Source: Candidatus Omnitrophota bacterium (GTDB lineage: Bacteria; Omnitrophota; Gorgyraeia; Zapsychrales; Zapsychraceae). Taken from it: a stretch of DNA of 64,000 nucleotides. The notes beneath the pieces were generated by a model. The model ran no database searches, was not told where the DNA came from, and saw only the letters and a list, made by a program, of their open reading frames with translations. The position numbers were made by a program, and so were the translations under genes. Positions 8,707 through 19,053 of this stretch are shown in pieces. Where the stretch lies: contig JAGQKV010000002.1 in the NCBI GenBank assembly GCA_020429915.1, positions 256,061-320,060 on the forward strand. The letters run 5' to 3'. Numbering within the stretch: position 1 is the stretch's first letter; the number at the start of each line of letters is the position of its first letter.

Positions 8707-10023
8707 TTATTTTCCGGCCCACAGAAAATAGCGCAGATAAATGTACACCGATGAAATCACCAGCGCCAACACCGTAAACGGTACCCCGTAGGCGAGAAAC
8801 GTCCGGAAACGGATCGGGATGTTGTTCTTCTCTCCGATCCGCGACATGATGATGTTAGCCGAGGCCCCGATCAAAGTCCCGTTGCCGCCCAGACACGCCC
8901 CCAGGGCGAGCGACCAGAACAGTGGTTCGGCGATCGACGCGCGGGCCGCTTCAGCCGGGATGCCGGCGCTCTCGGCGAAGTGATGCGCGAACAACCGCAC
9001 CAGCGGGACCATCGTGATCACGAAGGGGATATTATCCAGAATTGCCGACAGGAACCCGCCTCCCCACAGGATCAGCAGGCACAGGACGAGCAGGTTGTCA
9101 CCGGACCAGCTGATGATCTGCCGCCCGATCGATTCGATGACTCCGTTGTGTTCCAGCGCGGAGATCATCATGAACATGCCGATAAAGAAAAAGATGACCC
9201 CCCACTCCACATGCATCAGCGTCTCTTCGGTATGCGCCCGGCAGACCAGCAGCATGATCATCCCGCCCAGCAGCGCTACCACTCCGGGTTCCACGTGCGT
9301 CACCTCCTGCAGGATAAAACCGAGAAAGATGAACGCCAGGATGATCAGTGATTTGCGCATGTTCACCGGGTCGACGATCGCCAACCGCGGGACGGCGCCC
9401 GTGACCCGGTGTTGAATATTGACGGGGATATGATAACGGTTGCGGATCAGCAGGTAAACCGCGGACAGGGTCGCCAGCATGATGACCACTACGACCGGCC
9501 CCAGGTGCATGAGAAAATCGTTGAACGAAAGGTGCACTTGCGAACCGATGACGATATTGGGCGGGTCCCCGATCAACGTGGCCGTCCCACCGATGTTCGA
9601 GACGATGGCCTCCATGATGATCAACGGGCCCGGCGCGCAATTCAAAAGTTGGAAGATCAGGACCGAAACCGGTACGATCAGGATGATGGTCGTGACGTTG
9701 TCCAGAAATGCCGATAACACCGCGGTCACGGTCAACAGCAGCAGCGTGATGCGGACCGGGTCGCCGTCCGCCATTTTTGCGACCGTGATCGCGATCCATT
9801 CAAAGAATCCGGTGCGTGCGATCACCTTCACGCACAGCATCATTCCCACCAGAAGAAAGATGACGTTGAAGTCCACAGCCTTCATCGCGTCCTCGAAGGA
9901 GACGAGCCGCAAGGCGACCACCAGAGTCCCGCCGACCATGGCCACAATGGTCTTGTTGACCTTTTCCGTGGCGATCAGGATATAACTGAAAATAAAAATG
10001 GCGATGGAGATGGCGGAATTCAT
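8707..10023 (-). CDS. ArsB/NhaD-family anion/cation permease (CitMHS superfamily)
   Basis: 438 aa, ~12 TM helices, internal duplication, LSAFLDNVTT/ILDNIP motifs typical of the family. Confidence 0.8.
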   Translation of the reverse strand: MNSAISIAIFIFSYILIATEKVNKTIVAMVGGTLVVALRLVSFEDAMKAVDFNVIFLLVGMMLCVKVIARTGFFEWIAITVAKMADGDPVRITLLLLTVTAVLSAFLDNVTTIILIVPVSVLIFQLLNCAPGPLIIMEAIVSNIGGTATLIGDPPNIVIGSQVHLSFNDFLMHLGPVVVVIMLATLSAVYLLIRNRYHIPVNIQHRVTGAVPRLAIVDPVNMRKSLIILAFIFLGFILQEVTHVEPGVVALLGGMIMLLVCRAHTEETLMHVEWGVIFFFIGMFMMISALEHNGVIESIGRQIISWSGDNLLVLCLLILWGGGFLSAILDNIPFVITMVPLVRLFAHHFAESAGIPAEAARASIAEPLFWSLALGACLGGNGTLIGASANIIMSRIGEKNNIPIRFRTFLAYGVPFTVLALVISSVYIYLRYFLWAGK

Positions 10024-10025
10024 TT

Positions 10026-10952
10026 TTACAAAAACAGAATTTTATCGATGATGGTAAAGCGGTCCACGATGCCCACCAGGCGCAGGGAATCGTCCGTAAT
10101 GTACAGCTTGGCCTGGTCCTTGATCGCCAGCAAAAATATCAGCTCGATAAGGGTGGCCTGACCGGAAACCGGTGTCACTTTTCGGAGTACGGCCTCCTCC
10201 AGGCGGAGATTTTTCTTGTCCGTAAAGTACTGCTCAAACGGATCGATGTGCCGGATAAAGGAGATCGTGGTCATGTCCTGAAAGAAATCAGGCAGTTCCA
10301 TGCGCAGGACGTCCCGGCAGGTCACCTCTCCCATCAGCCGGTCCTGGCTGTCCACCACCGGCAGGATGTCCATCTTGTGCAGGTGCATCAACCGCGTGGC
10401 CTCCTTGATATCCATGTCCAGTGTGGCCTTGACCAGGACCGGACGCATCACTTGTTCAGCCACCACCTGACCGGTCAGTTCGACTTGGGCCAGCAAAAGC
10501 TGTTGAATATCCGACCAGTCGTACTGTCCTCCCAGCCGGATCTTTTGCGGCAGTCCCGCGTCCAGAAAGAAATGGCTGAGCGCGGACATGGCCTGTAGAA
10601 CCGTGTAGGGTTCGTTCAGCGAGGAGACCATCAGACAGACGATATGGACCCGACCCTGGTCCGCGGCGCCGAAGTCGATCCCTTTCGCGCTGATGCCGAT
10701 CAAAAGGACGAATTCCTTCCACCCCTCAATGCGGGCGTGCGGAAAGGCGATGCCGTCACCCAGGGCGGTGCTTTGCAGATTCTCCCGTTCCATCAGCATC
10801 CGCAGGCAGTCTTCTCGGCTGACCGCGCCGCCGACCGCCGAGCGCCGGGAATACAAGGCATTGACAAGAAAGGCGACGGCCTCTTCTTTGGTGGCGGCCT
10901 GCATATCCGGAAACACCAGGTCCCGGGAGAGAAAATCCGCTATTCGGCTCAC
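10026..10952 (-). CDS. PTS EIIA type-2 (PtsN-like) domain protein fused to a CBS-domain pair
   Basis: 308 aa; N-terminal EIIA-2 domain with phosphorylatable His motif (GIAFPHAR); two C-terminal CBS repeats; GTG start with GGAG Shine-Dalgarno site; 2-nt gap to the permease gene. Confidence 0.7.
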   Translation of the reverse strand: MSRIADFLSRDLVFPDMQAATKEEAVAFLVNALYSRRSAVGGAVSREDCLRMLMERENLQSTALGDGIAFPHARIEGWKEFVLLIGISAKGIDFGAADQGRVHIVCLMVSSLNEPYTVLQAMSALSHFFLDAGLPQKIRLGGQYDWSDIQQLLLAQVELTGQVVAEQVMRPVLVKATLDMDIKEATRLMHLHKMDILPVVDSQDRLMGEVTCRDVLRMELPDFFQDMTTISFIRHIDPFEQYFTDKKNLRLEEAVLRKVTPVSGQATLIELIFLLAIKDQAKLYITDDSLRLVGIVDRFTIIDKILFL

Positions 10953-11069: not shown

Positions 11070-13118
11070 TTAGATGCTGTCGATAAAATCTTTGCGCGGT
11101 TCTTCACGATAGGGGTGTTCAAACGTGCCCAAAATATTTTTAAAGTCCGCCGAGGCCGGACCGCGTTTAAACGAGGCCCGCGGGCTTTCCCCTTCTCCGG
11201 AGACGCGAACAGGTTTTCCCATAATGAGAAACGGCAGATCCGCCTTAAGCAGATTGTCCGATTCCGCGTTGAGCCAGCCGTCCGCCTGAAACCGGTTTTG
11301 CATGGATCCCAAGTCCTTTTGACAATTGCCCTCGCGGTTGGCGGCACCGCTGGAATTGAAGTTAAAGGCGATCTTCTCCTCATATGGGTACGCGGCGGCC
11401 TGCATCAGGCAATCGTGGGCCGGCACATAAGCGTAGCCTTCCAGCCACTCCGGCTTTCCGGGTTGCGGCCACAACGCCAACTCGAGTTGTTTCCCGTCGA
11501 TTTGGGCCGACCAGGCGCCGACCATCCCCGCCGTCGCTCCGGTCGGTTCGGCCGTTTTCCCGGCAACCGGCGCGGTCTGTTCAGCGTCCGGTTTTTTGGA
11601 CCCGGTCTGTGAAGATTCGCCGGCGTTTTCGGGAGTCATCTCAGATGGATTTCCCGAGTAAGCATCCTGCACCAGCCCGATCCCTTCGGAGACCATGTCC
11701 ACCATCGACCGAAATTCCTCTGTCATTTGCTTGGTGCGCGTATTCATCGGTTTGTCCTTCATGTAGGCATACTTCCGCATGTTCCGGTATGCAGCTTGGA
11801 CGGTCTCATCCGTACAGTTCCCGCGGATGACATTTTCCAGGGAATTGATATGGCGTGTGAAATGCCCCATCGCCCAGCGCACGCTTTCGGCCGGACCGCG
11901 GCCGCGTTTCTGGTTATTCATGACGATCGTCATGTAACGGTTGACCGCCCACGGTTTCCAGGACTGATAGAACCACTCCCAACTCTCGACATACTCCGGG
12001 TCCAAATAAAGAGTACGCGGCGGGCCGACCGGTTCGGCGTTGCTGAAGAACCCGTCGGTGGTCACCTCCACCGTCTGCAATTGCAAAATCTTGGGATTCC
12101 GGATGTACGAACGGCAGTGTGTGGAATATAGCTCAAGAAAGTTCTCGTAGAAGAAGGCGAACAAATTCTGGTAGTCCTTAAGCAAACCGTAATTTTCCTC
12201 CGCCAGCACGCGCGCCATGGCCGCCAGGTCCGGGATCGGATCTTCTTCAGGGGCTTTGTAGGCGAGCGCCGTTCGGTCCACTTCCCAATCCTGCTCCTTG
12301 GCTGTCTTCAGGAAACAGTTTTCCGTGTCCACACACTCGTATTCTTCAGGGACCGGATTGATAGAAAAACGCAACGCGGTGACCTCCGGGCATTCCTTGG
12401 CGTAGCGTTGCGATACGCCCTTGGCCATCATGACATAATCCGTTATGTCCGGCGGATCGGCAAACGTGGCCTCCTGCCGGTTGGCATACATCGGGCTTAG
12501 TTCGATGATGGTATCCTCCTCGCAGCCGCCCTTGAAGTTGACACCGAGGGTGCTCATCATATCGCGGAACTTGATTTCGAAGGTGTGCAGGCCGTCGTAG
12601 GCCGTCTTGACCAGCCCGTCCTCAAGACGCCAGTTATTGGCGCGCCGCATCGTTCCTTTATAGTCGAACTTCCCCTGATGCGGATATACGGGCGTCGCCT
12701 CCACCCGGACGACCTGCAACTGCGGACATTGTTCGGACAGCGCCTTCACGGACGCGTCGAGAAAATCGCCGATCGGAAGGTCCGCACCCTTGCCGCTCTC
12801 AATGTGCCGCTTGACATCGACGACGCGTTGATCGCCGATGGAGACCTTGAGCGTAGCCAATTCCGAACACACCCCGCGGAAGACCGTCGTCACAGGCGAC
12901 TGCATCTTGGCTGCGGAGACTTGAAACGCATTCGGCTCGGCGTCCCGCTCGAAATTCTTCTGCATCCTGACCTGAATCTGGCCGTAGGTCCGCATGGTTT
13001 CGCGCTCTGTTTCCCAGGCCTTGGGTTCTGCGGACACCGCCGAACATAGCCCGATTAATAATAGAAAAGCGGTGGCTATGATCCAGCGCCGTCCGGATAA
13101 GGATTGGACTTGGGACAT
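11070..13118 (-). CDS. large secreted protein of unknown function (682 aa) containing a conserved Cys-bearing domain shared with the adjacent FKBP protein
   Basis: Sec signal peptide (LLLIGLCSAVSA); AAAGGA Shine-Dalgarno site; internal ~180 aa region (AEENYGLLKDYQNLF...NCTDETVQAAYRNM) homologous to N-terminal domain of ORF 13149..14111. Confidence 0.7.
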   Translation of the reverse strand: MSQVQSLSGRRWIIATAFLLLIGLCSAVSAEPKAWETERETMRTYGQIQVRMQKNFERDAEPNAFQVSAAKMQSPVTTVFRGVCSELATLKVSIGDQRVVDVKRHIESGKGADLPIGDFLDASVKALSEQCPQLQVVRVEATPVYPHQGKFDYKGTMRRANNWRLEDGLVKTAYDGLHTFEIKFRDMMSTLGVNFKGGCEEDTIIELSPMYANRQEATFADPPDITDYVMMAKGVSQRYAKECPEVTALRFSINPVPEEYECVDTENCFLKTAKEQDWEVDRTALAYKAPEEDPIPDLAAMARVLAEENYGLLKDYQNLFAFFYENFLELYSTHCRSYIRNPKILQLQTVEVTTDGFFSNAEPVGPPRTLYLDPEYVESWEWFYQSWKPWAVNRYMTIVMNNQKRGRGPAESVRWAMGHFTRHINSLENVIRGNCTDETVQAAYRNMRKYAYMKDKPMNTRTKQMTEEFRSMVDMVSEGIGLVQDAYSGNPSEMTPENAGESSQTGSKKPDAEQTAPVAGKTAEPTGATAGMVGAWSAQIDGKQLELALWPQPGKPEWLEGYAYVPAHDCLMQAAAYPYEEKIAFNFNSSGAANREGNCQKDLGSMQNRFQADGWLNAESDNLLKADLPFLIMGKPVRVSGEGESPRASFKRGPASADFKNILGTFEHPYREEPRKDFIDSI

Positions 13119-13148
13119 GAATGAAATCCTTTCGAATTCTTAAAGAGA

Positions 13149-14111
13149 TTATCGGACCGCCAGCAATTCGATCTCAAAGACCAGCGTGGCGTTCGGACCG
13201 ATCGGTCCGAATCCCGCCGCACCGTAGGCCAGCTCCGGCGGAATGATCAGTTTGATTTTCCCCCCGGGCTGGATCAACTGCAACCCTTCGGTCCAGCCCT
13301 TGATGACGCCGTTCAGCGGGAAGCTGGTCGGCTCGCCACGGCTATACGAACTGTCGAATTCCTGGCCGTCAATCAGGGTTCCCCGGTAATGCACGGTGAC
13401 GGTGTTGGCCGCCGTCGGAAAGAGTCCTGCCCCTTGTTTGAGGATCGCATAGCGCAGACCGCTGGGTGTCCGCTGGGTCCCCTGGACCAGCTCGGGTGGC
13501 AGACCGCCGAAGTCTTCGGGCTCCGGGATCCGTGGCGCGTACGTCAGCAGATTACGATAGATCCGTTGTACGCGTTCATCGGTGCAGTGATCCCGAATCA
13601 GGAACGTGAGCTTATTGTAGTTCCTGATAAAGGACCCGGCCGCGAGTTTGGCCGCGCGGTTGGCATCCCGCCCGGCCGCGTGCTCCTTGCTGACCTTTTC
13701 GGCAATACGGTTGGAAATGTAAAGCCGGTTTTGGTCCTCGAATTGGTCGAAGTGCTTCGCGTACGGCTTGTCCAAGCTGATCGTGCGGGTGGGATCGATC
13801 TCGACGTCCCCGGTCTCAAATCCCCAGCGCGCCATTTCGCTTTCGATGGACGGCACCTGGCGGCTGACGGGCTCGAGGATCTGTTCCCCGCAATAGTCCG
13901 AGTAGATCTCCAGAAAGTCATTGTGAAACAGCCGCACCAACGGTGCGTGCGCGTCCAGTACGCCGTAATTCTCGGCCGCGAGATTATCGATCACCGCCTG
14001 GTAATCATTGGCCGCCGCCGGCGTCGTCCATAGGAGCAGGACGATAGCAAACAATGCCGTTACGGATGGGATTCCTGGATATGTCGATTTACTGCGCATG
14101 GTGTCTGTCAC
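13149..14111 (-). CDS. periplasmic FKBP-type peptidyl-prolyl cis-trans isomerase with N-terminal uncharacterised domain
   Basis: 320 aa; signal peptide; C-terminal FKBP domain (VTVHYRGTLIDGQEFDSS...LVFEIELLAV); N-terminal domain paralogous to region of 11070..13118; GTG start overlapping the MoaD-like stop (ATGA-type). Confidence 0.8.
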   Translation of the reverse strand: MTDTMRSKSTYPGIPSVTALFAIVLLLWTTPAAANDYQAVIDNLAAENYGVLDAHAPLVRLFHNDFLEIYSDYCGEQILEPVSRQVPSIESEMARWGFETGDVEIDPTRTISLDKPYAKHFDQFEDQNRLYISNRIAEKVSKEHAAGRDANRAAKLAAGSFIRNYNKLTFLIRDHCTDERVQRIYRNLLTYAPRIPEPEDFGGLPPELVQGTQRTPSGLRYAILKQGAGLFPTAANTVTVHYRGTLIDGQEFDSSYSRGEPTSFPLNGVIKGWTEGLQLIQPGGKIKLIIPPELAYGAAGFGPIGPNATLVFEIELLAVR

Positions 14112-14404
14112 CCCCCGGCAATGGCGCCGACGATGAATAACGGCTCCTGTCCTGATGCGACCGCAGCCGGTACGGAGGTCTGCGGGGCACGGTTGGAGTA
14201 ATCTTCTTCACAGGCGAAAAAACGGACCAAGGCCCGGCGTTGTCCGGTTTGCGGATCGCGGATGGTCCCGCGCAGGACCGGATATTTTTCTTCGAGTGCG
14301 TCGATGATATCGCCCAGACTGATTTCACCGGCCAGCTCCAGCGCCACTTCGTCCTGGATCCGGGCGAGTACCCTCAAGTGCGTCGGGAGTACAACACGGA
14401 TCAT
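14108..14404 (-). CDS. MoaD/ThiS/CysO-like ubiquitin-like sulfur-carrier protein (C-terminal Gly-Gly)
   Basis: 98 aa beta-grasp-like sequence ending ...VGAIAGG*; ATGA overlaps with both flanking genes. Confidence 0.7.
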
Positions 14405-15516
14405 GACAGCGTCTGCACCTCGACCGAAAGGACTTTGGGCAGGTCACGGGCCGCCGCCGTCCACGTGTCCCCGGCGTCCGCCGATACGTAAACCTGCCCG
14501 CCGGTCGTGCCGAAATAAATTCCGCAGGGATCGTGTCTGTCCACCGCCATGGCGTCGCGCAGGACATTGACATAACAGTGTTCCTGGGGAAGCCCCTGTG
14601 TAAGCGCCTCCCATTCCTCACCGCCTTTGCGGCTGCGGTAGACGCGCAGTTTGCCTTCGGGGGGATAATGTTCGCTGTCGCTTTTAATCGGAATGACGTA
14701 AATTGTATCCGGCTCATGCGCGTGCACGTCAATGGCGAAGCCGAAATCCGTGGGCAAATTGCCGCTGACCTCACGCCAGTTGTCGCCGCCGTCATCACTG
14801 CGCATCACGTCCCAGTGTTTTTGCATGAACAGGATGTTCGACCGTGAGGGGTGCATGGCGATGCGATGGACGCAGTGGCCGACCTCCGCGTCCGGATCGG
14901 GGATGTACTCGGACTTCAGCCCCTTATTGATGGGTTTCCACGACGCTCCGCCGTCATCGCTGCGAAAAGCGCCCGCCGCGGAGATGGCGATGTAGATTTT
15001 TTGGGGATCATCGGGTGAGACCAGGATCGTGTGCAGACACATGCCGCCGGCGCCGGGTTGCCATTTGGGGCCGGTGCCGTGCTGACGCAGACCGGGCAGT
15101 TCCTGCCAGCTGCGCCCCCCGTCTTTCGTTTTAAACAGGGCCGCATCCTCCACGCCGGCGTAAACGACGTCCGGATCATCCGCGGACGGCTCGAGATGCC
15201 AGACGCGCTTGAACTCCCACGGGTGCTGCGTTCCGTCATACCACAGATGCTGGCCCGTCTCGCCGTCATACCGGAACTCGTTGCCGACCGCTTCCCACGT
15301 CTTGCCGCCGTCATCCGAGCGCTGGATGACCTGACCGAACCAGGCGCTGGTTTGCGAGGCGTAAATCCGGTCAGGATCGGCCGGCGATCCTTTCATGTGA
15401 TAGATCTCCCATCCGCCGAAGAATGGTCCGTTGATGTTCCAGTTTCGGCGTGCGGCATCGGACTCGAGCACAAAGGCTCCCTTGGCGGTGCCGACGAGCA
15501 GGCGGGTTGCGGGCAT
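14401..15516 (-). CDS. cytoplasmic BNR/Asp-box repeat beta-propeller protein (sialidase/Ycf48-like fold)
   Basis: Start moved to [15 protein letters not shown] (the track ORF extends to 15705). No signal peptide. Five or more S-x-D-x-G-x-x-W Asp-box repeats ([44 protein letters not shown]). The stop overlaps the MoaD-like start. Confidence 0.7.
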
Positions 15517-15658
15517 ACGAACGATCCTTTCCCTAGAGGGTTTGTCTCCCGGCGAATACCGGTGTTCAAAACAGACTTCAATTGTATCGGGTTTGGACCG
15601 CTTTCGCAAGCGGTGAATCGACGGGTCGCGACACTTGCGGCGGGCGTGACCGGGTAGT

Positions 15659-16837
15659 ATGATAGTTCTCTTCGGAGGAAGAATCATGCACGACTGTCCC
15701 GACAATACGGAAAATACGGACGGCCTGGACCCGGCAGAACAAACGCGTTACGCGCGGCACCTGATCCTGCCGCTGTTCGGCGAGACCGGTCAACAACGGC
15801 TGAAGAACGCTCGGGTCCTGTTTGTGGGCGCCGGCGGGCTGGGATGCGCTCCAGCCCTGTACCTGGCGGCGGCCGGCGTGGGGACAATCGGCCTGGCCGA
15901 CGATGACGTGGTGGCTGAATCCAACCTGCAGCGACAGGTTTTGTACACGACGGCCGATATCGGCCGGCCCAAGGTCGAGGCCGCGCGTGAGCGGCTGTTG
16001 GCGCTGAATCCGCATATCAAGGTTCTCACCCACCCCCACCGTCTGACGGCCGCCAACGCGCTTGAGGTGATGCGCGCTTACGATGTCATCATTGACGGAA
16101 CCGACAATATTCCGGCGCGCTATCTGATTAACGATGCGGCCTTCATAATTAAGAAACCGTGGGTGTATGCCGGGGTGCATCAGTTTGAAGGCCAGTGCTG
16201 TGTGTTTGCGCCGGGCGGACCGTGTTACCGATGCTTCTTCCGTGATCCGCCGCGTCCAGAGGATATGCCGTCCTGTGCCGAGGCCGGCGTGATCGGCGTG
16301 GTCCCGGGACAGATGGGATTATTGCAGGCGAATGAAGTCATCAAACTCCTCAGCGGGATCGGCGAACCGTTGACGGGTCGTTTGTTATTATACGATGCGT
16401 TGGAAACGCGACTGCGTGAGGTACGGATCAAACCGGACCCGGCCTGTCCCCTGTGCGGTTCCGCGCCTTCTATCACGAAACTTACCGAAACCGCCTGGAC
16501 GTGTCCGGCCCACGATTCCGTTCCCGAGGTTTCGGTAAAGGAATTTAAGGTCATTTACGACAGCGGCCGACCGATTTTCCTGCTGGATGTGCGGGAAGAG
16601 TCGGAGCACCGGGTCGCGCGTATCGAACGGGCCTGCCTCATTCCGTTGGGACAGCTGCCGGATCAACTTGAACAGATTCCGCGGGACATGCCGGTGTATT
16701 GTTTCTGTAAACTCGGCGGACGCAGCGCCAAAGCGGTACGTCTCCTGCGGGAAAACGGATTTGAGGTGGTTATCAGCCTGGCCGGCGGGATCCAGGCCTG
16801 GTCCGAGCAGATCGATCCGGACGTTCCGACCTATTAA
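15659..16837 (+). CDS. MoeZ/MoeB-type E1-like adenylyltransferase with C-terminal rhodanese domain
   Basis: 392 aa; ThiF/MoeB fold with GAGGLG nucleotide loop and CxxC...CxxC zinc motif (CYRC, CPLC), C-terminal rhodanese domain with active-site Cys (CFCKLGGRS); the start may be the internal M at 15686. Confidence 0.85.
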
Positions 16838-18915
16838 ATCTGAGTGGCGGCCGGCAAAGATATGGTGATGGTGGTGCCGTGTCCGAGTTTGGACACGGCG
16901 GAGATCTCACCGTGGTGTTGTTCGATAATGGTATGGGAAATGCTCAACCCCAATCCCGTACCTTCTCCCTCCGGTTTGTCCGTATAGAACGGATTCCAAA
17001 TCTTGCCGAGCGCCTCCGGTTGGATACCCTTCCCCGTATCCGAAATGACAACAATCACATGTGTTCCCAGGCTGTACGTGCGGATGGATATTTCGCCCTT
17101 TTCCGGAATGGCGTGAACAGCGTTCATGAGAATATTGATGAAGACCTGTGCGATGAGGTGTTTATTGCACAGGACCGGTTTGTCGTCGTCGTACTCTTTG
17201 GTTAAGGTGATGCGGTCGGAAATTTCAGCGGCCACTATCCCCATAATGCTTTCCAGAACGTCCCGCAGCAATACAGGCTCCAATTTCCCTTCATCTCCGC
17301 GGGCAAACGTCAGCAACCCCTTGACGATTTTGCGGATCCGTTCAGTCCCTGTCCTGGTTTGGGACAACAGCGCCGGCAGGTCCTCTCTTACGTGCTCCAG
17401 CCGGAAATCCTGTTTTTGCGCCTGGACACTGTCGATTATTTGCTGAAGGCCGGCCATATCCTGACTTTGAACAGCCGCGCGCATCTCATCGTAACGTTCG
17501 ATGATGGCCAGCAGTCCTTCGGTGTATTCCTGCATGACGGTCAGATTGTCGCGTACCATCGTCAACGGATTGTTGATTTCATGGGCGATTCCTGCGGAGA
17601 GATAGCCGATTGAGGCAAGCTTCTCGGATTTCATCAATTGGCCGTTCATCCGTTCCAGATTGTCATATGCCTGTTGCAGCTTTTCTTTTTGTGTCACCAG
17701 TTCTTTGCTCATCCGGTCGAGTGCATTCCGGGAGGCGGTGATCTCATTCAGATTTTGCAACATGCGGTCAAAGGTTTCGGCCAAGTATCCGATTTCATTT
17801 TGCAATTTCAACAGTTTGGGTTCAACATGAATATGCAGGTTGCCGTGTCCGACCACACCCAGAATTTGTGTGAGTTGTTCCAGCGGGTGAGAAATTTGCT
17901 GCTTAACGTAACGTGTCAGCAAGGTGAATCCTAACAGAATAATCATCAATAAGAGTATCAAGCTGTACCGTAACCGGCGTATCGGCAGCAAGGCTTCGTC
18001 TTTGTCCATTTTGACGACGACTCCCCAGTTCATGCTGGGCGCCTGATCCCAAACGGCCAATGAAGTTTGGCCGCGATAGTCCGTGTAAGTGCCTTTACCG
18101 CGTTTACCGCGGACCGCCAGGTGCAGCGGGCTGAGATCCTCGACGTTGATATCGGACTTGCGTCGGAAGCCGGCGGCCGGGTCGTGCCGGGTGTCATTCA
18201 AGTAAACGATTTCATTTCCGATTGCCGCCAGCGCGAGGACTTCCCCAGTCGCGCCAAGGCCAGTCTTACCGGTAACGATTTTGAGCAGCGCGGACTTGTC
18301 GACTTGCAGGGCCACCACGCCGATGAATTCCCCTTTACGGAATACCGGAGCCCCGATAAACGCGGCCGATGCCCGGGATGGCTCATAGTATTTCAACTGG
18401 GAGACATGCGGCGCGGCATTGACTTTAGACATCCGGAAGATATCGGCCAATCCGCTATTGCTGTACGGTCCGGTTGTCAAATTAGTGGCGAAATCCGGTT
18501 CATGGATAATGGAAAAAATCAGGTCTCCTTCCGCGGAAATCAGGAATAGGTCGTAATACCCTGCGGAGTCCTTGAAGGCCGTTAGAAAAGGCCGGAGTTG
18601 TTGATCCGTTTTTTTGTAGTCTTCGGAATCAATGCCCTGCCCGTAGTAAATTGGTTCGAATTCGCTGATGGCATTGATGATGTCCGGCATTTGAGCGAGG
18701 GCCGCAACATCACGCTTACGTTCTACGACATAGGTTTCGATCTCGGATATCGTGAAATCGAGAATGCCGAACAGTCGATTATCCAGCTGCCTGTCCAGAT
18801 AGGTTTTGAAATAAACATGCAGCAAAACCGTAACCAGGATCAGCACCGCTGCCAGAATACCGAAAGCCTTGATCAGCTTGCGGGAGAGACGGTTTCTTTT
18901 GGGGGTTGGGGTCAT
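16834..18915 (-). CDS. sensor histidine kinase with periplasmic double-Cache-like domain
   Basis: Start trimmed to MTPTPK... (the track ORF extends to 18975). Has two TM helices flanking a ~270 aa periplasmic domain, a HAMP-like linker, a HisKA domain (SAGIAHEINNPL) and a HATPase_c domain (GTGLGLSISH). It is convergent with the moeZ-like gene, and their 3' ends overlap by 4 nt. Confidence 0.8.
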   Translation of the reverse strand: MTPTPKRNRLSRKLIKAFGILAAVLILVTVLLHVYFKTYLDRQLDNRLFGILDFTISEIETYVVERKRDVAALAQMPDIINAISEFEPIYYGQGIDSEDYKKTDQQLRPFLTAFKDSAGYYDLFLISAEGDLIFSIIHEPDFATNLTTGPYSNSGLADIFRMSKVNAAPHVSQLKYYEPSRASAAFIGAPVFRKGEFIGVVALQVDKSALLKIVTGKTGLGATGEVLALAAIGNEIVYLNDTRHDPAAGFRRKSDINVEDLSPLHLAVRGKRGKGTYTDYRGQTSLAVWDQAPSMNWGVVVKMDKDEALLPIRRLRYSLILLLMIILLGFTLLTRYVKQQISHPLEQLTQILGVVGHGNLHIHVEPKLLKLQNEIGYLAETFDRMLQNLNEITASRNALDRMSKELVTQKEKLQQAYDNLERMNGQLMKSEKLASIGYLSAGIAHEINNPLTMVRDNLTVMQEYTEGLLAIIERYDEMRAAVQSQDMAGLQQIIDSVQAQKQDFRLEHVREDLPALLSQTRTGTERIRKIVKGLLTFARGDEGKLEPVLLRDVLESIMGIVAAEISDRITLTKEYDDDKPVLCNKHLIAQVFINILMNAVHAIPEKGEISIRTYSLGTHVIVVISDTGKGIQPEALGKIWNPFYTDKPEGEGTGLGLSISHTIIEQHHGEISAVSKLGHGTTITISLPAATQI

Positions 18916-19053
18916 GTAGGTCCGGATGAATATGTTGCGGCCAGGCCGGATCAAACGCAGTCCGATATTCAACACGAATGAGATGACAAGGATGAGAAGT
19001 TCAATCGGCCGCCGTAGGCCGGCAAGATTGGCTGTACGGAATGCTCAGAAAGG

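Follow-up and report, generated by a model that had tools for sequence, protein, structure and literature searches.

Two adjacent genes of a Candidatus Omnitrophota bacterium (contig JAGQKV010000002.1, assembly GCA_020429915.1) encode an FKBP-type prolyl isomerase fusion and a secreted protein of 682 amino acids (aa), which have a domain in common. Both lie on the minus strand of the stretch of 64,000 nucleotides (nt) that was analysed (positions 256,061 to 320,060 of the contig), which is called the window below and to which all window coordinates refer. The longest open reading frame (ORF) in the ORF list for the FKBP fusion spans 13149-14111 (-) and gives 320 aa from a GTG at 14111. The gene start is probably the ATG at 14099 rather than this GTG, because a Shine-Dalgarno-like GGGGGG run lies 12 nt upstream of the ATG and because the resulting 316-aa protein is the database form on record, found on 43 contigs; the gene would thus occupy 13149..14099 (-). 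The gene for the 682-aa neighbour (11070..13118 (-), ORF list) begins 30 nt past the FKBP stop codon, with AAGGA 8 nt ahead of its ATG, and the 30-nt intergenic gap and common strand suggest that the two are co-transcribed. The initial annotation had described adjacent genes with the same domain, one of them fused to a foldase, and both reading frames are indeed present.

The public annotation hides the shared domain through a truncated FKBP gene. NCBI starts the gene internally (MCA9392910.1, 228 aa; MCA9403222.1, 213 aa; 'FKBP-type peptidyl-prolyl cis-trans isomerase'), and this removes the signal peptide together with about 90-100 residues of the N-terminal domain, which is most of what is shared. 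In a comparison with the related locus L002, the ratio of non-synonymous to synonymous substitution rates (dN/dS) is about 0.06 for the codons that precede the NCBI start, which shows the long form to be translated; across the N-terminal part of the fusion the ratio is about 0.06-0.09. Judged by its homologues and by dN/dS, the long FKBP form is real. The neighbour is 100% identical to MCA9392909.1, a 'hypothetical protein' from a Candidatus Omnitrophota metagenome-assembled genome (MAG).

Both proteins start with Sec-type signal peptides, as judged by inspection. In the FKBP fusion the signal peptide (14010..14099 (-); MRSKSTYPGIPSVTALFAIVLLLWTTPAAA/ND) has a positively charged n-region, a hydrophobic core and an AAA/N site, and it diverges fast (non-synonymous rate dN 0.79 against L002), as signal peptides generally do. 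It is followed by an N-terminal module (13524..14009 (-)), which is copy 1 of a helical two-cysteine domain as delimited by BLASTP, a family hidden Markov model (HMM) and an AlphaFold2 (AF2) model, then by a Pro/Glu-rich linker (13485..13523 (-)) between the HMM envelope and the FkpA-homologous region, and finally by an FkpA-type FKBP catalytic domain (13152..13484 (-)) recognised by Pfam, NCBIfam and the structure 1q6h. Pfam FKBP_C (PF00254) covers FKBP residues 232-317 (E=5e-29), positions 139-249 of the NCBIfam FkpA model match the catalytic half, and residues 206-315 of the 316-aa form align with residues 114-223 of E. coli FkpA (1q6h; E=5e-38). The core motifs Y(K/R)GTLIDG.EFD.SY.RGEP.SF.L.GVI.GWTEGL, PPELAYG and LVF.ELL are identical or conservatively replaced relative to FkpA; from what is known of FKBP12, we take them to hold the residues of the substrate and FK506 pocket, and we infer peptidyl-prolyl isomerase (PPIase) activity from this sequence match. 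The other half is different: Pfam gives no FKBP_N (PF01346) match in the fusion at E<=0.1, nothing in it aligns with FkpA residues 1-113, and FkpA and Mip are absent from the Foldseek matches of the model of the N-terminal domain. By sequence, therefore, the fusion is a periplasmic FkpA-type prolyl isomerase in its catalytic half, with the usual FKBP_N dimerisation domain replaced.

The replacement recurs inside the neighbouring protein. BLASTP aligns FKBP residues 36-192 with neighbour residues 297-451 over 157 residues with 34% identity and 2 gaps (E=5e-25), and the family HMM finds exactly two copies in the window, at E=4e-61 in the neighbour and E=2e-53 in the FKBP N-module. Both match the profile over its full length, including a YSxxC motif and a second Cys about 100 residues later. 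The domain proposed in the initial annotation is thus real, with some changes of detail: it measures about 165 aa instead of about 180, the similarity is one continuous alignment in place of three conserved blocks, and the one or two invariant cysteines claimed for each block come down to two in total, none of them in the middle block. Each copy has exactly two cysteines, C74/C176 in the fusion (320-aa numbering; codons 13890-13892 and 13584-13586 (-)) and C335/C435 in the neighbour. The AF2 model of the domain alignment (predicted local distance difference test, pLDDT, 91; predicted template-modelling score, pTM, 0.88) is mostly helical, with six helices and a beta-hairpin. In an alignment of 70-71 sequences a Tyr, the two Cys and a Gly are near-invariant, the two Cys columns being conserved in 70/71 and 69/71 members; 64 of the 71 have exactly two Cys, and one member has lost both together. 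In the secondary-structure map of the model both cysteines lie at the same end of neighbouring helices, and one disulfide probably stabilises the domain.

An exhaustive profile search with HMMER across 1.84 billion cluster representatives matched 87 clusters at E<=1e-3, of which 49 reach E<=1e-10. It was the exhaustive search that revealed the family, since word-index protein searches with the domain alone or with a 70-sequence profile returned almost nothing and missed the window protein itself. The absence of an assignable known family, as first reported, held throughout: Pfam recognises only FKBP_C in the fusion and nothing in the neighbour, NCBIfam has no match for the shared domain, a Pfam scan of 70 domain sequences and 63 full-length relatives gave no consistent match, a PDB profile search gave nothing significant (best E=0.21), and Foldseek with the helical-domain model found no fold match in the PDB. 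A weak GH-E nuclease match in the neighbour (E=0.086) is present in one member only and was dismissed as noise. Source labels of the family are Candidatus Omnitrophota MAGs, Gammaproteobacteria, Pseudomonadota and a Desulfobacula fragment, in all cases as 'hypothetical protein'. A genome scan with the family gave two loci only, in Omnitrophota HKST-UBA08 and Gammaproteobacteria SZUA-142, and metagenome scans with the pattern of the large protein and with that of its C-terminal barrel gave no matches.

Most clusters have the domain in third place within a conserved secreted core, after two alpha/beta repeats, usually at about residues 285-450 of proteins of 450-680 aa. The architectures collected comprise the core alone or with a coiled coil (75), the core with a barrel (12) and the domain without the rest of the core (22), the last group being made up of fragments, short secreted proteins with unknown C-terminal modules and FKBP fusions. 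Some short secreted proteins have the domain at their N-terminal end and differ in the module that follows it (P0062, P0072 and, with an FKBP domain, P0064), in keeping with one invariable recognition module that is combined with different effector modules.

The 682-aa neighbour combines the core with a barrel. Its signal peptide (13029..13118 (-); …LIGLCSAVSA/EPKAW, by inspection) precedes an N-terminal core of two alpha/beta repeats (12249..13028 (-)), defined by Cys conservation, BLASTP and AF2. The repeats are weakly homologous to each other (BLASTP E=2e-4), amounting to an internal duplication, and each has one conserved Cys pair (C84/C131 and C199/C243), to which a CxxxxxC pair (C262/C268) is added. 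Copy 2 of the helical domain follows at 11709..12248 (-), with Cys codons at 12114-12116 and 11814-11816. Eight cysteines are near-invariant in 63 relatives (C84, C131, C199, C243, C262, C268, C335 and C435), and so are W163, P257, Y331 and G356 in the full-length alignment; the secreted core of about 440 aa, helical domain included, likely contains four disulfides. No Pfam family corresponds to this core as a whole, and Foldseek matches of its N-terminal part to the central domain of acetyl-CoA carboxylase, with a template-modelling (TM) score of about 0.1, are not meaningful. The AF2 model of the full protein (overall pLDDT 87, pTM 0.62) is confident for residues 30-470 (pLDDT >93), and in it the helical domain and the N-terminal repeats seem to make up a single rigid body. 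A predicted disordered linker (11532..11708 (-); pLDDT <50 for residues 480-521), only 34-41% conserved among three lineages, leads to a C-terminal two-cysteine beta-barrel (11073..11531 (-)) that Foldseek marks as calycin-like. With residues of about 530-655, the matches are avidins, fatty-acid-binding proteins (FABPs) and Tp0751 (probability 0.9-1.0, target TM 0.45-0.5, E of 1e-3 or weaker). Within the barrel a further cysteine pair, HDC…NC, is conserved; the barrel is present in some family members only, others having a Gln/Glu-rich coiled coil instead.

The strongest evidence on the relationship between the two genes comes from related loci. The order of a BNR protein gene, a gene for a 98-aa MoaD/ThiS-like protein, the FKBP gene and the gene for the large protein is the same in the window, L002 and L013, so the placement of a helper next to its putative client in a conserved operon holds in three lineages. 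The large proteins of L002 and L013 are 66% and 65% identical to the window neighbour. At L002 the N-module of the isomerase is again the helical domain (83% identical to that of the window). At L013 the catalytic domain is 82% identical to its window counterpart, and the two isomerases are homologous only from residue 211 onwards (316-aa numbering), a point just within the catalytic part. In place of the helical domain, the L013 isomerase has as its N-module a paralogue of the C-terminal barrel, which aligns with that of its own neighbour (36% identity over 154 aa, E=6e-30) and with residues 530-682 of the window neighbour (34% over 154 aa, E=1e-27). A misassembled repeat was ruled out as the source of this module, given the identity of only 36% to the barrel and the presence of the contig in two samples. 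On the sequence evidence, orthologous isomerases carry two non-homologous N-modules, whose counterparts are two different domains of the one protein encoded downstream.

The window N-module does not look like a fresh copy of its neighbour's domain. The two copies are 31-34% identical; the N-module scores 144 bits with the profile of the 'FHNDF' clade against 110-115 bits with that of the neighbour's clade, and a neighbour-joining tree places it outside the latter. Distances are saturated in a bootstrap quartet test of its origin. A recent local tandem duplication was rejected on the preference of about 30 bits for the profile of a non-neighbour clade. The low identity and the better fit to another subfamily indicate that the N-module has been kept for a long time. 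It has been under strong purifying selection, with a dN/dS of about 0.09 against L002, and between these two loci it is 83% conserved, compared with 73% for the helical domain of the large protein. Charge complementarity between the modules gave no signal, all of them being mildly acidic.

Two types of N-module matched to one neighbour argue for a partner-specific docking module, and the FKBP fusion would then be a dedicated foldase or assembly factor for the protein encoded next to it; we judge this reading to have an even chance of being correct. A free-standing copy of the helical domain would take the place of the FkpA-type N-terminal dimerisation and chaperone domain, and by binding the neighbour it would hold the catalytic FKBP domain on that one protein. 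Docking could occur like-with-like, or onto the surface that the domain contacts inside the neighbour, and should the helical domain touch the barrel there, a single interface would serve both types of fusion. Physical binding, with the neighbour as substrate, is what we infer from the gene arrangement and the shared modules; the neighbour may equally be a client, a stable partner or a co-user of a shared target. A more specific version, which we hold only tentatively and would rather bet against, has the foldase targeted by mimicry of a client domain: the N-module would be a paralogue of a domain of the client, and either of two client domains could serve. The helical domain and the barrel would be the two sides of one interface within the client, so that a copy of either would dock the enzyme in the same place, where it might hold the partner surface until a slow prolyl step ends.

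Several observations weigh against a dedicated foldase. The operon is known from only three lineages, which are closely related and all from metagenomes, and some 85 of the 87 family clusters are without FKBP. At seven loci of the large protein with usable flanks the foldase neighbour is absent, and no conserved neighbours of other family members were found, the large protein usually being alone. P0064, a very divergent second fusion of the helical domain to FKBP, adjoins a gene for a metallo-beta-lactamase with a twin-arginine translocation (TAT) signal, and no family member stands beside it, although the contig is only 2.2 kb long. Because the large protein is elsewhere alone and P0064 sits beside unrelated genes, the pairing of FKBP and large protein is lineage-specific. 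Moreover, the reading does not account for the cytoplasmic MoaD-like gene that lies upstream in the same operon. The suggestion in the initial annotation of a chaperone-client pair, or of a domain that targets the isomerase to its client, is partly supported: it gains strong comparative support from the operon in three lineages and above all from the barrel swap at L013, with the many family members that have no FKBP nearby and the surroundings of P0064 standing against it.

A self-associating domain alone would also account for the replaced FkpA dimerisation domain, and the N-module may be just such a handy periplasmic domain, the isomerase being a general chaperone with no tie to its neighbour. 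Mip-like proteins are V-shaped homodimers held together by their N-domains, and their chaperone activity needs both domains (PMC5889476, PMC8113782); the catalytic domain here is of a very ordinary FkpA type, and the helical modules (window, L002) and the barrel module (L013) are unrelated folds whose common trait could be self-association. However, the window N-module is no recent local copy (about 31% identity, with a better fit to another subfamily), and N-modules have stayed beside the same neighbour in lineages diverged to 65% identity. Two chance draws on the same neighbour, both under strong purifying selection, are less economical than a functional tie, and we consider plain dimerisation unlikely. 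No better placed, in our estimation, is the explanation that the helical domain and the barrel each bind an envelope component or a small ligand, to which the isomerase and the large protein are delivered independently, with the isomerase acting on other proteins at the common site. It would suit a family that joins a constant part to variable C-terminal modules (coiled coil, barrel, FKBP, unknown), a barrel that resembles ligand-binding calycins and the many members that work without any FKBP. It sits less well with the conserved positions of the helical domain, which are mostly hydrophobic or structural in addition to the two Cys, with no evident ligand-binding or catalytic motif, or with the 7 of 23 conserved positions at which the FKBP copy deviates from the consensus of the family, an oddity if a ligand site had been retained; in the model, furthermore, the domain looks like an integral structural part and not an autonomous binding module.

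Chance similarity, low complexity, or an artefact of ORF calling or assembly would be in keeping with the internal NCBI starts (213 and 228 aa), which drop most of the domain, and with the empty-handed word-index search. Such an origin is nevertheless vanishingly improbable in view of the BLASTP significance (E=5e-25), the 87 clusters found by HMMER, the model confidence (pLDDT 91), the dN/dS of 0.06 upstream of the NCBI start and, for L013, the same considerations that ruled out a misassembled repeat, and it can be regarded as excluded. The analysis newly defines two unannotated domains, predicted to be extracytoplasmic (the helical and the barrel two-cysteine domain), and a secreted core of about 440 aa. 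If the modules do dock on the neighbour, the preferred reading would amount to a simple, transplantable rule that gives a general foldase a private client, and chaperone-client pairs would become predictable from sequence through a search for helpers that have a domain in common with the product of an adjacent gene.

The remaining genes around the pair form an odd mix, in which genes for a cytoplasmic set of sulfur-carrier or ubiquitin-like type lie in one operon with those for two exported proteins. The 98-aa product of the MoaD/ThiS-like gene (14108..14404 (-)) ends in Gly-Gly and corresponds to the NCBI 'MoaD/ThiS family protein' MCA9392911.1; the stop codon of this gene overlaps the GTG at which the FKBP ORF begins, and its place in the operon does not differ between the window, L002 and L013. 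One member of the FKBP cluster, P0120 (Logan, 417 aa), has about the summed length of the 98-aa MoaD-like and 316-aa FKBP proteins, and is probably a frameshift or a read-through at the overlapping stop and start in that assembly. Next to the MoaD-like gene lie a gene for a BNR/Ycf48-like beta-propeller protein (14401-15705 (-)) and a divergent ThiF-rhodanese (E1-like) gene (15659-16837 (+)). The order from MoaD-like to FKBP is kept in L002 and L013, the BNR gene is also found there, and ThiF is present in L002. A dCache-HAMP histidine kinase gene (16834-18975 (-)) adjoins the ThiF-rhodanese gene and has the same neighbour in L002. Downstream of the pair, at 8707-10952 (-), genes for a regulatory protein with PTS-EIIA and CBS domains and a CitMHS/ArsB-type permease have abutting coordinates; they are probably a separate transport unit, not conserved in L002. 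Elsewhere in the family, the gene for a 741-aa protein with a class I methyltransferase domain precedes that of the large protein P0101 (792 aa, clade B) with a 10-nt gap (L014 3765-5990, L015 147-1193), and thus represents a different tightly linked partner gene than FKBP.

FkpA and Mip are viewed as broad-range periplasmic chaperones whose N-domain serves only for dimerisation. The present locus points to another design, in which the same catalytic domain is combined with interchangeable N-modules that duplicate domains of one neighbouring secreted protein. Like FkpA, Mip and FKBP22, the window protein consists of a signal peptide and two domains joined by a linker, the catalytic one being at the C-terminus. 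Its N-domain, by contrast, is unrelated to theirs: it measures about 165 aa, includes a beta-hairpin and two conserved Cys, and has a homologue within the product of the adjacent gene. Members of the FkpA/Mip family dimerise through the N-domain, which also plays a part in their chaperone activity (PMC5889476, PMC8113782, PMC10031210). The barrel of the neighbour, for its part, may be comparable in fold to the calycins (avidins, FABPs, lipocalins and Tp0751), with Foldseek probabilities of 0.9-1.0 at a target TM of only 0.45-0.5, but has no sequence similarity to them and no Pfam match, and carries the HDC…NC Cys pair of its own.

The arrangement of genes recalls the periplasmic helper Lif/LipH, which is encoded beside lipase A, the one protein it serves (PMC9638971). 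In both cases the helper is adjacent to its actual or putative client in one operon; Lif, however, is no prolyl isomerase and has no domain in common with the lipase, whereas the window helper carries a paralogue of a domain of its putative client. Dedicated prolyl isomerases do exist, such as NifM for NifH and NinaA for rhodopsin. Colicin M, in turn, depends on FkpA (PMC8469651, a review). What is proposed here would resemble these cases as a PPIase with one principal client. To our knowledge, no copy of a client domain is present in NifM, NinaA or FkpA, and their specificity does not come from shared domains. The chaperones PapD and FimC of the chaperone-usher pathway supply a structural element that imitates the natural partner of the client, and the likeness is one of principle only: they provide a single strand, with no paralogous domain, no isomerase and no sequence relationship, and the window FKBP would provide the imitation as a whole domain. 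We would accordingly class the protein, from its sequence, as a Mip/FkpA-type isomerase with swappable, neighbour-derived N-modules built on two unannotated extracytoplasmic domains.

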